From a virus (lineage: Duplodnaviria; Heunggongvirae; Uroviricota; Caudoviricetes), in the IMG/VR virus record IMGVR_UViG_3300045988_142422: a stretch of 64,000 nucleotides of DNA; one strand, written 5' to 3'. This document shows positions 4,276-61,644 of the stretch, piece after piece. A model generated the notes under the pieces. It searched no databases. It saw only the letters and a list, made by a program, of their open reading frames with translations, and was not told the DNA's origin. Every line of letters starts with the position of its first letter. Positions within the stretch are counted from its first letter, which is position 1. The position numbers were made by a program, and so were the translations under genes.

Positions 4276-4357
4276 AAACCTCTTTCCTTAGTGCCTTTTG
4301 TATGTTATTTGGCTATTATAATAAGTAAGTGATTACTTAGTGGATTGTAGCAATAAA

Positions 4358-5038
4358 ATGGATGTAAAAATCACGATTTTGCAGGTTGATGTTGCCAACC
4401 TTCGCCCGAATACCTGGAACACCAATTCGGTTGGTGCGCAGAATTTTGAAAAACTGAAAGGTTCTATCGAAAAATTGGGCTTTTTTAAGCCAATTTTGGC
4501 TCGTGAACTTGAAGATGGATTTTTTGAAATCCTCGGCGGTGAACATCGCTGGCGTGCTGCTATTGAGCAAGGAATTTCAACGGTTCCGGTGCTTTCTGTG
4601 GGCAAAATTAGCGATGTCGTAGCTAAACAGATGTCACTGGTGGACAACGAGCGATACGGTGAAGACGACCAAATCGCATTGCAACGCTTCATTGAAGAAA
4701 TTCAGTCAGAACTTGACTATCAACTGTCTGAAATCGCCCCGTATGACGACGAAATCTCGATGGTTTTAGCAAAAGAGGCGGCAATCGACCTTGAAGCACT
4801 GGAGGCGTTGTCTCGTGGTAGTGATGAGCCTGTCGATACCGACAAACGAGAGAAAACCGAACGTGTGGGTGCGGAACATCAGACCATGCGCTTCAAAGTA
4901 ACTTTCGATGCGTCAGATCGTGTTGCAGAAACCATAAAAAACATCATCAAAGAGCAGGCTATTAACACCGGTAATGAAATGGAGAACGCTGGTGAGGCTC
5001 TGGTGTGGCTGGTCGACTACTACAAGGAGCGTATGTAA
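4358..5038 (+). CDS. ParB/Srx-like N-terminal domain protein 1
   Basis: GGEHRWRAA matches the ParB GxRRxxA box; acidic middle region. Start set at ATG 4358 (the track start 4340 is GTG). Confidence 0.65.
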   Translation: MDVKITILQVDVANLRPNTWNTNSVGAQNFEKLKGSIEKLGFFKPILARELEDGFFEILGGEHRWRAAIEQGISTVPVLSVGKISDVVAKQMSLVDNERYGEDDQIALQRFIEEIQSELDYQLSEIAPYDDEISMVLAKEAAIDLEALEALSRGSDEPVDTDKREKTERVGAEHQTMRFKVTFDASDRVAETIKNIIKEQAINTGNEMENAGEALVWLVDYYKERM

Positions 5039-5706
5039 TGACCAAAAAGTTTGAAATCGTATATCGCGACCCGGCAGATCTTATTCCCTATGAGATGAAT
5101 GCCAAAAAGCATGATGAACAGCAGATCAGAGATTTGGCCGCAGCCATTAAAAAGCGCGGATTTGACCAGCCAATTACGGTCGATAAGAACGACGTAATTA
5201 TTACTGGCCACGGCCGCCGTGAGGCTGCAATTTTTGCTGGACTTGAGCGCGTACCGGTTATTGTTCGTGATGATCTGAGTGATGACGAGGTTCGTGCGAA
5301 GCGCCTTGAAGATAACCGACTTGCCAGCATTGATTACGATGCAATTAAGCTACAGAAAGAGCTTGAGTCGCTTGTTCTGGACGATATTGAGGTTTTCGGC
5401 TTTGAAGAGCGTGAGTTGAATGTTCTCGTTGGCAGTATGACAGAAGAAATGGACACCGACTCGCTAGTTATCGATCTTGGCGAAGAAACTAAACGACAGA
5501 AGGATGAACACACCGAGATCAGTCGTGAAGTTGCAGCGGAAGAAGTACGTGTTGTCGACGTATTGGGCTTTAAAACGCTCCCTGCTGGCTCTGCCATTGT
5601 TGTTGGTGATTTGCTTGCCCATATGGAAGAAATGACGGGAGAAAGCGGGGTAGACGCATTTGTGGCATATGCGGAGAAGATCTCTTCCGGGGAGATGGCT
5701 GCATGA
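5038..5706 (+). CDS. ParB/Srx-like N-terminal domain protein 2
   Basis: ITGHGRREAA ParB box; ATG overlaps the upstream stop (TAATG) with AAGGAG 9 nt upstream. ORF track lists an extended 5005 start. Confidence 0.65.
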   Translation: MTKKFEIVYRDPADLIPYEMNAKKHDEQQIRDLAAAIKKRGFDQPITVDKNDVIITGHGRREAAIFAGLERVPVIVRDDLSDDEVRAKRLEDNRLASIDYDAIKLQKELESLVLDDIEVFGFEERELNVLVGSMTEEMDTDSLVIDLGEETKRQKDEHTEISREVAAEEVRVVDVLGFKTLPAGSAIVVGDLLAHMEEMTGESGVDAFVAYAEKISSGEMAA

Positions 5707-6368
5707 GCAAATACATCATCAACGTATCGTTTCAGACACGCGTAAATAAAACCACGCGCACGTTGGAAATCGCTGAGTCGTTCGGGCTTGGCCTGGACGA
5801 AAAAGAGTGGACGCTTTACGACAATCTGGAGCTGGAAGTGAAGCAGGGCGATGTGGTGTACATCACCGGCCAATCCGGTTCCGGCAAATCCGTTGTGCTG
5901 CGCGAGTTGCAACGACAGATGAAGGATGAAGGGCTGTCTGTAGCCTCCATCGATGATTTTACCTTCGATAATGAGGTTAACGTCATCGATCAGTTGGGCA
6001 AAACGACCAGTGATGCGCTTGGGTTGTTATCTATGGCTGGTCTGAACGATGCATATCTGTTTGTTCGCAAGCCTTCTGAAATGTCAGACGGCCAGAAATA
6101 TCGTCTCAAGATTGCCAAACTGATTGAGTCAGGCGCTAAAGTATGGGCTGCTGACGAGTTCGGCGCTGTTCTCGACCGTGTAACCGCTCAGGTTGTGGCG
6201 TCTAACCTCCAGCGTGCCGCTCGAAAGGTTGGTGCGACGGTAATGGTGGCGACGACTCACGAAGACCTGAAGAACGCGCTGCGCCCTGATATGCAGATCA
6301 CCAAGCACTACAAAGAACGCGTGAAGGTGGAATATCACAATGGTAGTCATGATGAGGTCCATTCATGA
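5703..6368 (+). CDS. Minimal ABC-type ATPase (221 aa)
   Basis: Walker A GQSGSGKS, ABC signature-like SDGQKYRL, Walker B VWAADEF, H-loop TTHEDL. ATGA overlap with the upstream gene. Confidence 0.7.
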   Translation: MSKYIINVSFQTRVNKTTRTLEIAESFGLGLDEKEWTLYDNLELEVKQGDVVYITGQSGSGKSVVLRELQRQMKDEGLSVASIDDFTFDNEVNVIDQLGKTTSDALGLLSMAGLNDAYLFVRKPSEMSDGQKYRLKIAKLIESGAKVWAADEFGAVLDRVTAQVVASNLQRAARKVGATVMVATTHEDLKNALRPDMQITKHYKERVKVEYHNGSHDEVHS

Positions 6369-7255
6369 CGGACATCATCATTAAACGCTACCGCCCTGAA
6401 GAGTTTCCGCGTCATCTGGACTTTCTGGAGCGAATGACTGTTACAAAGGGAACTGTAGAGGACTGGCACGCTCTTAAGTCGCTTCACTACAAAACAGACG
6501 GCAAACCTTTCGCGCCAACTTACTATCGCTGCGAACTTGATGACCGTCTGGTGGGCGTCGTGGTTATGGCTTACCCGAAACTACTGTTGGCACCTCGCCA
6601 CCGCATGTTTCCTAAGTTGAAACCAACCACTAATACCACCGTGGCTAACCAGTACTGGGGTCGGTACGTGAATAACAACTTTGCGGTGATCAGTCGCTCA
6701 GTTGTGGATACTCAGTATCGTGGCGTAGGCGTCTCTTATAGAATGATTAACCTGGTTAGCAGGATGCATGACCGGCCAATCATTGAGATCCAGTCCTCGA
6801 TGAGCAAATACAATCCCTTCGCCATGAAAGCAGGGTTTAAGTTCATCCGCCCTGAGCGACCGAAGAGCTATGAAAGTGCACTGCGTGTGTTCCAGCGCCA
6901 TTTCCGCTCCGACCCGGGTGATAACGAGGCGATCGTCAAAGAATTGTTCGCTATGAGCGAGTCTCGTCGTCGCCGTGCGCTGCGCGATTTGGTGGCGGAC
7001 TACCATAAGAACAGTTCCCTGGCAAAAGCTGGGCGGAATCGTGGCACGACGATTCAGGACATTGCCGACAGTCTGGTGGACGAGGCCAGCATTGTGAAGC
7101 TGCTCAAGGACATTCACAACCTGAGCTTTACGTCTCCGTTGTATGGTGTGTACCGAAACCCTGACTTTGGCCGTCGACTGCCTGACACGCTGCCACTGCT
7201 GGCATTCGACAAACAACCTTTGGATAAACCGTTAGAAATTGCTTTACCGGCATAA
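6365..7255 (+). CDS. GNAT-fold acyltransferase-like protein (296 aa)
   Basis: DTQYRGVGVS resembles the GNAT RxxGxG/A acyl-CoA-binding motif, followed by NPFAMKAGFKFI. ATGA overlap with the ATPase. Fold assignment is tentative. Confidence 0.45.
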   Translation: MTDIIIKRYRPEEFPRHLDFLERMTVTKGTVEDWHALKSLHYKTDGKPFAPTYYRCELDDRLVGVVVMAYPKLLLAPRHRMFPKLKPTTNTTVANQYWGRYVNNNFAVISRSVVDTQYRGVGVSYRMINLVSRMHDRPIIEIQSSMSKYNPFAMKAGFKFIRPERPKSYESALRVFQRHFRSDPGDNEAIVKELFAMSESRRRRALRDLVADYHKNSSLAKAGRNRGTTIQDIADSLVDEASIVKLLKDIHNLSFTSPLYGVYRNPDFGRRLPDTLPLLAFDKQPLDKPLEIALPA

Positions 7256-7264
7256 GGATTTGCC

Positions 7265-60556: not shown

Positions 60557-60616
60557 AGTTTTCCTTTGAAGATAGTTGGACAGTTTCTGCAAAAGGCGGC
60601 TAATGCCGCCTTGAAA

Positions 60617-60841
60617 TCATTTACAACGATCAACCATTCGTTTGATCTGTTTGGCATGGTTTTCGGGATTACCCGGAGTCGACCATACGCTCATTTGGTG
60701 AGTTTTGTGTTCACCTTCTGGATTACCGCATCGCAGTCTGCAAAAACAATGTGCAGCACCACCAGCTGCTACCCAGATCCAGCCTTTACTTAATGCATAG
60801 TCAATGGCTGCTTGAATATGCTTATTCGGATGTTGCTTCAT
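60617..60841 (-). CDS. Small HicA-like putative toxin (74 aa)
   Basis: GGAGG RBS; KGW...GGAAH...PGNPENHAKQIKRMV loosely fits the HicA/YcfA pattern (Gly-aromatic, G-x-x-H, P-x-H ... K-x-I-K). Tentative. Confidence 0.35.
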   Translation of the reverse strand: MKQHPNKHIQAAIDYALSKGWIWVAAGGAAHCFCRLRCGNPEGEHKTHQMSVWSTPGNPENHAKQIKRMVDRCK

Positions 60842-61095
60842 TCGCCTCCGATAATAGTATTCTATTCACAGTGTTGACATCTGTCAACGGCGACTGAATT
60901 TCATCCGTTCATGCCACCCCCCCATCCATCTCATGTATGTGACCTAAAGATGGTCAGCACAGCTTACCAAAATAAGACAACTAATTATCTTCGGTGATCT
61001 CAATATTTTCCCCTGAACAAAGTTGACATGACGCCATAAACCCGTTCTCTGTTTGATATAATTGATACAGATTTTATAAGTAGGAACCTATTAGA

Positions 61096-61527
61096 GTGAA
61101 CACTGATATTTTTTCTAAAATCATGGCCGATCTGGAGTTCGACCGCGACAACCTTGAGGAAGTATGGCGTAAACAGCCACGGCTTTTAATGGAGTATGGG
61201 TCAAAACTAGCGCAGGCAGATCGAGATGTCGCAGAGGCAAAACTTAACCTTGAAGCTGTTGAAGCAAAGCTATACGACACAGAGCGTAAGAACTTGAGTA
61301 TGAACGGCATTAAGTTCAACGAGTCTGTACTGGACGCTAAGGTTAAAACAAACCCACAGTATCTGTCTAAACGGCAGAAGTTGGATGAAGCACGGCACAT
61401 CGCAGACATATACAAACATGCTGTCGCCGCCTTTTCGCATCGCCGAGACATGATCGTTCAGGCGTCAAAGATGGCCATCGTTGAATTAGAGCGATTAGGC
61501 TCTGAACGCTTTATTACTCCCCGTTGA
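61096..61527 (+). CDS. Hypothetical protein (143 aa)
   Basis: ORF upstream of the SSB gene. Confidence 0.45.
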   Translation: MNTDIFSKIMADLEFDRDNLEEVWRKQPRLLMEYGSKLAQADRDVAEAKLNLEAVEAKLYDTERKNLSMNGIKFNESVLDAKVKTNPQYLSKRQKLDEARHIADIYKHAVAAFSHRRDMIVQASKMAIVELERLGSERFITPR

Positions 61528-61644
61528 TTTTTGATAGATAATAAGTAAGTACTGATCTATCATTTAACAGCTCGAAAGAGCCACGAATGAACGAAAGCCC
61601 AACGCGCATAGCGCCATCGGCCAAATCACAACAAGGAGAAACAC

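Follow-up and report, generated by a model that had tools for sequence, protein, structure and literature searches.

Dispersed repressor operators are known in principle from the phages P1, L5 and φC31, but they have not yet been described for the SSU5-like group of phage-plasmids. Full-text searches for the regulation of SSU5 and pHCM2 and for the motif sequence revealed nothing relevant in the searchable literature. Here we report on a family of short dyads in a 64 kb stretch of DNA (IMG/VR record IMGVR_UViG_3300045988_142422, called the window in the following), which is part of an Escherichia coli SSU5-like phage-plasmid. The dyads consist of two 7-bp arms around a 4-bp spacer and lie mostly between genes. 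With a probability of roughly 0.55 by our own estimate, they would represent dispersed operators that are read by a dimeric helix-turn-helix (HTH) protein, most likely the XRE lysogeny repressor of the element, and that silence the prophage. Individual sites are named after their first position in the window (Table 1).

Phage P1 resembles the present case in its plasmid prophage of about 100 kb, its single immunity repressor C1 and its operators scattered at lytic promoters. The C1 operators are, however, asymmetric 17-bp sequences bound by a monomer, some of them paired, whereas the sites described here are symmetric 7-4-7 dyads. The C1 protein does not belong to the XRE type, and no sequence similarity exists between the two operator sets. 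To our knowledge, operators inside late operons have not been reported for P1. Copies of this kind are typical of the stoperators of cluster A mycobacteriophages (L5 gp71, Bxb1), where 20–35 copies of one short word occur mostly in short intergenic gaps, often touching stop or start codons, in early as well as late regions and inside operons, with a motif that co-evolves with the element. These features are shared by the family reported here, including intra-operon copies away from promoters (9613, 11120, 13036 and 30035, of which 9613 contains the terminase stop codon). Stoperators are asymmetric 13-mers oriented with transcription, whereas here both halves are equal, no orientation is seen and many sites lie on predicted core promoters. 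The sites are not stoperators in the strict sense, since the defining asymmetry and orientation are lacking.

Similar in format are the conserved inverted repeats (CIRs) recognised by the c repressor of φC31, with about 17–18 bp, a distribution over many intergenic regions and one copy that autoregulates the repressor. They differ from the present sites in the actinomycete host, in the repressor family and in their concentration in the early region. The OB sites of plasmid RK2/RP4, finally, are dispersed palindromic operators at varying promoter distances that are read by KorB, a global repressor of the ParB family. The element studied here encodes two ParB-N-domain proteins downstream of the strong site 4322, which provides a link to this system. 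OB sites are, however, GC-containing palindromes of 13 bp in 12 copies, and a sequence-specific HTH is not evident in the ParB-like proteins of the present element.

Geometry and distribution of the dyads

The window shares 96–99% identity with Escherichia phage CMS-2020a and with Cyrano, which is the plasmid prophage pLF82, about 81% with Salmonella phage SSU5 and about 79% with Klebsiella phage-plasmids such as pJN2-26. A sequence-only reading of the window had listed 16 palindromes with TAAGTA and TACTTA half-sites. The sequence given for each of them was present at every coordinate. Fourteen belong to one family, whereas the other two, 7576–7593 and 39941–39954, turned out to be the centres of a separate 55-bp hairpin repeat, with weak scores of 11–18 bits. 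In addition to the earlier list, the lone half-site at 44367–44384 and a conserved 30-bit site in the portal gene (11120–11137) were recognised as new members.

Enrichment of the words is pronounced. In the window TAAGTA occurs 44 times compared to 21.4 expected copies and RTAAGTA 33 times compared to 9.6, and neither count was reached in any of 100 shuffles. According to the curated gene list, 9.6% of the window is non-coding. Comparison of this fraction with the coding DNA gave ATAAGTA/TACTTAT as the top non-coding 7-mer, with 16 non-coding versus 3 coding copies (Fisher p = 4e-14). The same words lead the intergenic 7-mer enrichment when Cyrano, SSU5 and pJN2-26 are analysed as complete genomes (p = 1e-15 to 1e-23). 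With the window included, the motif ranks first among intergenic 7-mers in four genomes, which represent three genera.

A weight matrix of 26 columns was refined on Cyrano, SSU5 and pJN2-26 and yielded the consensus (a/t)(a/t)n-A-TARGTAA-GTAC-TTACYTA-T-y-a-t. Its application to the window gave 21 matches of at least 8 bits, compared to 0.77 in Markov shuffles; non-coding DNA accounts for 19 of these matches (binomial P = 8e-18). In the three complete genomes 28–29 sites of at least 14 bits were found each, with 28 in SSU5. The canonical 18-mer was also searched for by an exact scan of 2.9 million viral contigs. Contigs with several copies were all large, reaching about 110 kb, and a number of them are SSU5-like; elsewhere the matches were isolated and single.

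The members share the architecture (g/a)a-TARGTAA-N4-TTACYTA-t(c/t), that is, 7-bp arms and a 4-bp spacer in a dyad of 18–22 bp. Among the exact arm pairs of the four genomes, the spacer measures 4 bp in 17 of 18 cases. The half-site centres are 11 bp apart, about one helical turn, and this geometry is compatible with a DNA-binding dimer. When a single arm is used to select sites, its partner appears in a fixed register, and the pattern TARGTAA-N4-TTACYTA recovers the sites directly. A variable spacing of 0, 4, 8 or 12 bp between the half-sites, which would speak for hairpins and against a dimer, was considered as well and proved to be an artefact of internal TAAG repeats, which vanished once the outer arms were aligned. 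The family is real and has a 7-4-7 architecture. The sites begin 0–47 nt past the upstream stop codon, and some of them contain that stop codon. The distance of 15–40 nt to the following start codon, previously thought to be typical, is too narrow, as the distances actually range from 3 to 85 nt and amount to 204 nt at the divergent XRE region.

Half-sites, hairpins and concerted change

Palindromes at such positions could act as hairpins at cistron boundaries, either in RNA or in extruded DNA, and serve as processing sites, stabilisers, weak terminators or targets of an RNA-binding protein, for example of the FljA family. The location close behind stop codons, co-oriented with the transcription units, is in accordance with this explanation. 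A canonical site can be folded into a stem of 7 bp capped by a tetraloop (GUAA or GUGA in E. coli), the Klebsiella copies are flanked by A-runs and T-runs, and an RNA-binding repressor of the FljA type is encoded in the element. The pairing itself was assessed per genome by counting the Watson–Crick matches between the arms within sites and comparing them to those obtained with right arms permuted among sites. The window gave 109 observed versus 106.4 ± 4.1 permuted matches (P 0.29), Cyrano 169 versus 168.0 ± 4.7 (P 0.45), SSU5 173 versus 170.2 ± 4.6 (P 0.30) and pJN2-26 177 versus 179.0 ± 4.7 (P 0.69). There is no excess of arm–arm pairing over permuted arms in these four genomes; each arm therefore drifts independently around the consensus, and deviations are left uncompensated.

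The kind of mismatch leads to the same result. Pairing in RNA would favour G·U, but G·T and A·C mismatches on the sense strand are similar in number (10/15, 21/23, 14/24 and 21/17 in the four genomes, 34/23 in a wider set), which argues against RNA pairing. Orthologues of the capsid-gene site had seemed to show G·U wobbles and compensation, an impression refuted by these mismatch counts and by the permutation test. With a symmetric scoring matrix, the half-site consensus is approached equally well by the upstream and the downstream half (Wilcoxon p = 0.19–0.96), and no orientation relative to transcription could be detected with this half-site matrix. A strand bias of the 12-mer ATAAGTAAGTAC, which occurs 14 times forward and 3 times reverse in the window, was gone in Klebsiella and gone everywhere with the symmetric matrix.

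Predicted RNA hairpins at the sites are weak (−1.7 to −6.8 kcal/mol), and two of the best-scoring sites, 40062 and 61542, fold no better than shuffled sequences (z above 0). In three genera, single half-sites are kept at orthologous positions. T-runs do not generally follow the sites. Rfam 15 gave no match at the sites; in the window it identified only a cspA thermoregulator and two tRNAs.

GC-rich hairpins were observed right after several late-operon sites, at 13058–13084, 16635–16649, 23144–23166, 30054–30076 (behind site 30035) and 35347–35374. Their sequences differ between E. coli, Salmonella and Klebsiella, whereas the pairing is kept (GCGCA..TGCGT, GCACC..GGTGC, GTGTC..GACAC); the small hairpin behind site 16611 likewise covaries between genera. 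Only the hairpin after the capsid gene carries a T-run and resembles an intrinsic terminator. As these hairpins covary in the very alignments in which the operator sites keep their sequence instead, they illustrate what real structural conservation looks like. A hairpin function of the sites is very unlikely on these grounds, and they are likely to be read on duplex DNA by a dimeric protein encoded in the element.

The sequence of the motif changes in concert in distant relatives. Within IMG/VR, distant clades carry TAGGTAG...CTACCTA, TARGTAT...ATACYTA or TATGTAW...WTACATA, with both arms changed together at more than one site. In a relative from Acinetobacter baumannii the motif reads TCAGTCA-GTAC-TGACTGA, corresponding to an exchange of A to C at positions 2 and 6 of each half-site. 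Such a concerted change of a dispersed word points to a trans-acting factor encoded by the element itself. The capsid-gene site is kept in almost all clades with varying flanks (80 IMG/VR loci).

Selfish or recombinogenic intergenic repeats would be another source of dispersed palindromes, of the type of repetitive extragenic palindromes (REP), miniature inverted-repeat transposable elements (MITE) or T4 promoter–stem-loop (PeSL) cassettes; they would multiply by duplication and provide junctions for module exchange. Homology to pJN2-26 resumes exactly at two of the sites, at 35330 after the variable tail-fibre module and at 44370 after a replaced gene, and the variable tail-fibre module is bracketed by sites 30035 and 35328. 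Most homology breakpoints are found elsewhere, however, and the sites are merely 18–22 bp long without conserved flanks. Their orthologous positions are conserved across genera, with strict geometry and precise placement at predicted promoters, and the concerted motif change in distant clades argues for recognition by a trans-acting factor. Of all explanations considered, an origin as mobile repeats is the least probable. The sites may occasionally serve as recombination junctions.

Position relative to promoters and transcription units

For the analysis of promoter contexts, the regions upstream of seven genes were aligned across up to seven genomes, complemented by pattern searches and a promoter scan. 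The contexts are conserved across up to seven genomes with diverged flanks. Conserved −10 or extended −10 hexamers occur at defined positions beside 10 strong sites, and at least 4 sites have no promoter nearby. The coordinates of the sites and of the other features are compiled in Table 1.

Table 1. Dyad sites, hairpin repeats and gene blocks; positions refer to the window unless a plasmid is named.
Feature	Position	Strand	Score (bits)	Sequence	Context
Site 4322	4322–4339		25.1	TAAGTAA-GTGA-TTACTTA	before parB-like operon (4358–7531)
Site 9613	9613–9630		24.8	TAGGTAA-GTAA-TTATCTA	intra-operon; orthologues found
Site 11120	11120–11137		30.1	TAAGTCA-GTAC-TTACTTA	intragenic, near portal gene 3' end
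Site 13036	13036–13053		20.9	TAGATAA-GTAA-TTATCTA	9 nt past major capsid gene stop
Site 16611	16611–16628		23.0	TTGGTAA-GTAT-ATACTTA	5 nt past stop codon; orthologues found
Site 23116	23116–23133		22.8	TAAGTAA-GTAC-TAATTTA	upstream of tail L gene
Site 30035	30035–30052		30.3	TAGGTAA-GTAT-TTACCTA	between J-like tail gene and tail-fibre gene
Site 35328	35328–35345		23.5	TGTGTAA-GTAC-TTACCTA	overlaps upstream stop codon; ahead of holin gene
Site 40062	40062–40079		26.9	TAAGTAA-GTAA-CTACCTA	six-genus alignment
Site 43496	43496–43513		23.3	TAAGTAG-ATGA-TTACTTA	centre about −30
Half-site 44367 (lone)	44367–44384		13.4	TAGGTAAGTAC	3 nt upstream of ATG at 44388
Site 47012	47012–47029		31.7	TAAGTAT-TTAC-TTACTTA	upstream of conserved TAAGAT/TATGAT −10
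Site 49416	49416–49433		23.5		divergent control region
Site 51473 (putative weak operator)	51473–51490		16.3	CTGGTAA-GTGC-TTACCGA	XRE promoter
Site 54133	54133–54150		23.5	TAAGTAA-CTAC-TTACCAT	seven-genome alignment
Site 61542	61542–61559		31.5	TAAGTAA-GTAC-TGATCTA	seven-genome alignment
Acinetobacter sites	e.g. 2955–2976, 16896–16917, 26773–26792, 31974–31995				plasmid NZ_CP035046 (L090)
55-bp repeat, copy 1	7554–7610 (centre 7572–7596)		13.6–17.1 (centre)		between wHTH gene and small terminase gene
55-bp repeat, copy 2	39921–39974 (centre 39935–39959)		10.8–18 (centre)		upstream of replication module
XRE-family regulator, 128 amino acids	51057–51443	−			weak Pfam HTH_19; PHROG 8 'transcriptional regulator'
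Minus-strand block	169–4275	−			includes FljA-family gene and UvsW-like helicase
parB-like operon	4358–7531				
Late operon	7727–36691				small terminase to lysis; followed by partition genes
Replication module	40093–47000				followed by tRNA/non-coding region
Integrase and XRE genes	49959–51443				

Three sites (4322, 40062 and 51473) cover a predicted transcription start region. Site 4322 directly follows a conserved −10 hexamer (TATAAT in E. coli, TAGAAT in Klebsiella), and its context is conserved in SSU5 and pJN2-26. Site 40062 lies 13 nt (E. coli) or 10–13 nt (other genera) past the −10 of a conserved σ70-type promoter, TTCCAA-17-TATCAT/TATGAT, and abuts the Shine–Dalgarno sequence of the gene at 40093–40833, the first one of the helicase/primase module. 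Two sites occupy the spacer between −35 and −10. The last two bases of site 61542 start the conserved −10 (TATCAT/TATTAT) of the gene for the gp32-like single-stranded DNA-binding protein, so that the site fills the spacer, and a conserved TATCAT/TATTAT hexamer begins 1–2 nt past site 23116.

Centred near −30, sites 43496 and 47012 end 5–7 nt before a conserved extended −10 (TGTAAGAAT-type at 43496). For site 43496 the distance is 6 nt, and the extended −10 reads TGTGAGAAT, TGTAAGAAT or TGTAATAAT. The predicted promoter at site 47012 reads into the tRNA/non-coding region; the site ends 7 nt before the −10, and this case is less clear-cut. A comparable arrangement is seen upstream of the SSU5_096 orthologue, where the site ends 5 nt before an extended −10 in Cyrano, SSU5 and pJN2-26. 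The right end of site 49416 overlaps the −35 of a predicted promoter, TTATCA-17-TATAGT, of gene 49503. Sites 35328 and 54133 are centred near −41. The latter lies upstream of the conserved −10-like sequences TAATAT and TAAGAT/TAGAAT of gene 54210, and its placement resembles that of the holin site 35328. This site is followed by a conserved TGATATAAA at a distance of exactly 18 nt in E. coli, SSU5 and pJN2-26 and of 19 nt in Cronobacter; Enterobacter carries TGTTATAAA in place of TGATATAAA ahead of the holin gene. The sequence of the gap differs among genera, and the site centre falls at about −41 to −42.

No promoter was detectable at 9613, 11120, 13036 (capsid gene/terminator) and 30035 (between late genes). 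The TAA stop codon of the large terminase gene is part of site 9613, and 11 nt separate the end of this site from the ATG of the portal gene, with no conserved −10 in the vicinity. Site 11120 is conserved in SSU5, Cyrano, pJN2-26 and many IMG/VR loci. Site 13036, for which 50 orthologous variants were listed, lies 4 nt ahead of the intrinsic terminator at 13058–13084. The lone half-site 44367 is kept as a half-site in SSU5 and pJN2-26.

Relative to the conserved −10 hexamers, the sites range from about −41 over −30 and the spacer to between +1 and +24. Consensus σ70 promoters are depleted in the region 40000–59999 (17 compared to 31.9 ± 3.9 in shuffles), and for most lytic genes transcription seems to depend on a −10 or extended −10 element accompanied by a poor −35 hexamer. 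This situation could also be expected for an activator of middle or late lytic genes that replaces the absent −35 in the manner of a T4 MotA box or of a class II activator. Indeed, several sites centred at about −30 or −41 are followed by a conserved hexamer of the −10 or extended −10 type that lacks a good −35, the depletion of consensus promoters counts in favour of it, and the length of the holin gap is kept despite sequence divergence. However, other sites of the same quality cover expected transcription starts, occupy the −35/−10 spacer, lie 3–11 nt from start codons, fall inside a gene or precede a terminator, where an activator would be unworkable. Furthermore, they occur in replication, lysis and structural modules alike and mark no single temporal class. 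A dedicated activator is improbable for these reasons, though the conserved holin spacing makes an activating role possible at some promoters.

The spread of positions fits repressor operators, not a promoter element or a dedicated activator site. A phage-specific promoter consensus, the second option of the sequence-only reading, found no support: the element is symmetric, takes many positions relative to the −10 and is also found 11 nt before a start codon, within a gene and before a terminator. Likeness of TAAGTA to a −10 hexamer or to the T4 late promoter TATAAATA was rejected because the hexamer lacks T at position 6 and in view of the symmetry and variable placement. Neither spacing nor core bases appear to fit the Fur box, the TyrR box or IHF sites.

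If the sites are operators, a dimer of one HTH protein encoded by the element would read both half-sites on double-stranded DNA. Bound at the start regions of the parB-like operon, the helicase module and the XRE gene, the dimer would obstruct host RNA polymerase. It would do so in the −35/−10 spacer of the gp32-like and tail L genes, and elsewhere by covering the −35 region where a promoter relies on an extended −10. Copies inside the late operon might act as roadblocks or as anchoring and looping sites. About 29 sites per genome would in this way silence the lytic genes carried by the 100-kb plasmid prophage, and the weak site on the XRE promoter would provide negative autoregulation. Judged by their placement, the main effect of the sites would be repression on somewhat better than even odds.

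Candidate readers, neighbouring features and implications

The gene of the XRE-family regulator neighbours the integrase gene in 865 plasmid records, which derive from Klebsiella, Escherichia, Enterobacter, Yersinia (pMT1), Salmonella, Citrobacter, Cronobacter and Acinetobacter. In the Cyrano lysogen the XRE gene is expressed, and its product is the presumed master repressor (PMC9928086). One member of the family had been placed in the control region of this gene by the sequence-only reading, and a conserved weak site was indeed found there. It directly follows the −10 of the XRE promoter TTTACA-16-TAATAT (− strand, 51517–51490) and covers the expected start. This arrangement of promoter and weak site is conserved in Yersinia, Enterobacter, Cronobacter, Klebsiella, Kluyvera and Buttiauxella, thus in all enteric clades examined, and the Acinetobacter XRE promoter carries a TCAGTCA arm at the same position. 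Most enteric clades have an extra half-site, TAGATAAGT, immediately adjoining the −35 of the XRE promoter (AAATAGATAAGTCTTTACAAC); the window carries a degenerate form of this half-site (51444–51694). A divergent 70-amino-acid gene at 51695–51907 (PHROG 2627) takes the position of a cro-like partner.

Typical enteric XRE proteins are 56–66% identical to that of E. coli across clades (56–100% overall). Their helix 3, YKN(A/P)NNLSLIKSG, is invariant in enteric plasmids and phages with a typical XRE, and the motif is likewise invariant. In Acinetobacter, where the motif is different, helix 3 reads FKRPNVLSMIKSG, with Arg where the enterics have Asn. A divergent Klebsiella XRE (about 38% identical) has the helix 3 FENANNISLIKSG, which retains most of the enteric sequence, together with canonical sites. 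The PDB contains no solved relative of XRE. XRE homologues of the variant clades L075, L080 and L086 were not among the best 80 viral-contig loci, and a scan of species-representative genomes for XRE gave 6 loci, all canonical or unrelated. A match on a Thauera plasmid was discarded as an unrelated HTH protein.

Several observations weigh against the proposed repression by XRE at these sites. The Klebsiella XRE with a K to E exchange at the start of helix 3 keeps canonical sites. Co-variation of XRE and motif amounts to a single contrast, that of the enterics with Acinetobacter, between which all proteins differ. SSU5 has no XRE homologue, yet 28 good sites are kept. The roadblock or looping role at the promoterless sites 9613, 11120, 13036 and 30035 is conjecture, and the constant distance between holin site and −10 through diverged sequence is more typical of an activator. 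SSU5 lacks the whole block of integrase, XRE and orf70 between a tRNA gene and the cobT-like gene and, from this gene order, is best seen as a deletion derivative, with a presumably recent loss in a lytic isolate. The absence from SSU5 is no sufficient reason to exclude XRE in view of the 865 plasmids with XRE beside the integrase, Salmonella and Yersinia included. The pattern in SSU5 would equally allow another, retained reader, that is, the winged helix-turn-helix (wHTH) protein or one of the two ParB-like proteins.

Such a different reader of the same operators could be the wHTH protein (88 amino acids, 7265–7531), the ParB-N-domain proteins (4358–5706) or a 71-amino-acid regulator (46349–46564), acting as a KorB-like global regulator whose own operon is headed by site 4322. 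All of these candidates are conserved in SSU5, the operon of the parB-like and wHTH genes starts with a 25-bit site over its start region, and KorB, a ParB homologue, sets a precedent with its 12 dispersed palindromic operators at variable promoter distances. On the other hand, Pfam detects no DNA-binding domain in the wHTH or the 71-amino-acid protein and only ParB_N in the ParB-like proteins. Unlike XRE across clades, the genes of these candidates have no conserved weak site directly on their own promoter. We therefore consider a reader other than XRE unlikely. XRE itself is the reader with a chance that, from the comparison of promoters and proteins, falls a little short of even.

The proposal of an operator family for one phage-encoded protein is favoured by the computational evidence, in view of the fixed 7-4-7 dyad, the independent halves, the concerted change, the placement on predicted core promoters and the conserved member in the XRE control region, whereas binding by XRE or the wHTH protein is what we infer. 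In its most specific form it would assume an XRE repressor without a peptidase domain that acts at about 30 operators, some of them intragenic or intra-operon copies serving as roadblocks or looping anchors, with a specificity that has diverged from TAAGTAA/Asn to TCAGTCA/Arg and defines immunity groups. This form is doubtful.

The order of genes in the window equals that of its annotated relatives. Beyond the integrase and XRE genes follow cobT-like genes, DNA polymerase III alpha, the gp32-like gene and recombination genes. The region 47001–48420 comprises 1.4 kb without long open reading frames and contains two tRNA genes (47779–47850 and 47856–47928) as well as several strong hairpins; it is transcribed from the predicted operator-controlled promoter at 47012–47046. 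In the equivalent region of Cyrano a third tRNA (Ser) is annotated. The match to the cspA thermoregulator RNA (Rfam RF01766, 185.7 bits) is of full length, lies at 59423–59841 (−) and spans a cold-shock protein gene, which represents cargo.

The 55-bp hairpin repeat, GACCTGCWTCYGTATATA...TATATACGGAAGCAGG, is distinct from the operator family and has GC clamps around an AT-rich centre that resembles a TAAGTA site. A third copy is found in SSU5 at about 78310–78354. The GenBank records of SSU5 and Cyrano both start at the centre of copy 1 (7593/7594 of the window). This coincidence could be due to a physical end or a packaging site, or else to an assembly break.

A second conserved word, AAACAA(G/T)TTGTTT, occurs on the + strand at 7649–7661, 7674–7686, 37929–37941, 40845–40857 and 51974–51986, in the 5' regions of the small terminase, parA, helicase and cobT-like genes. 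Three of the copies are exact and two have one mismatch; allowing two mismatches, 9 copies compared to 5.7 expected were counted, which is a weak excess. At 40851–40867 and 51980–51996 it forms a small hairpin beside the ribosome-binding site AACAAAGGA. The word may be a translational operator.

The FljA-family protein encoded at 1415–2017 (−) has 200 amino acids (Pfam Flag1_repress, E = 2.5e-84) with a faintly Hfq-like C-terminus and is conserved in SSU5 and pJN2-26. FljA of Salmonella is an RNA-binding post-transcriptional repressor of fliC, the leader of which contains CAAGTTGT. The phage-plasmid protein could repress host flagellin or bind AAACAAGTTGTTT leaders.

Members of the SSU5-like group are pHCM2 of S. 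Typhi, pMT1 of Y. pestis and numerous plasmids from Klebsiella, E. coli and Enterobacter, some of them with resistance genes. For this widespread family of medical relevance, the operator word together with a candidate repressor would provide a testable model of silencing and induction, and the word could be used to predict promoters and transcription units. Its variants TAAGTAA, TAGGTAG, TATGTAW and TCAGTCA would allow a prediction of immunity or incompatibility groups. If the specific form of the XRE proposal were true, it would mean stoperator-like genome-wide silencing in Gram-negative phage-plasmids and the existence of immunity groups among elements that carry resistance genes.

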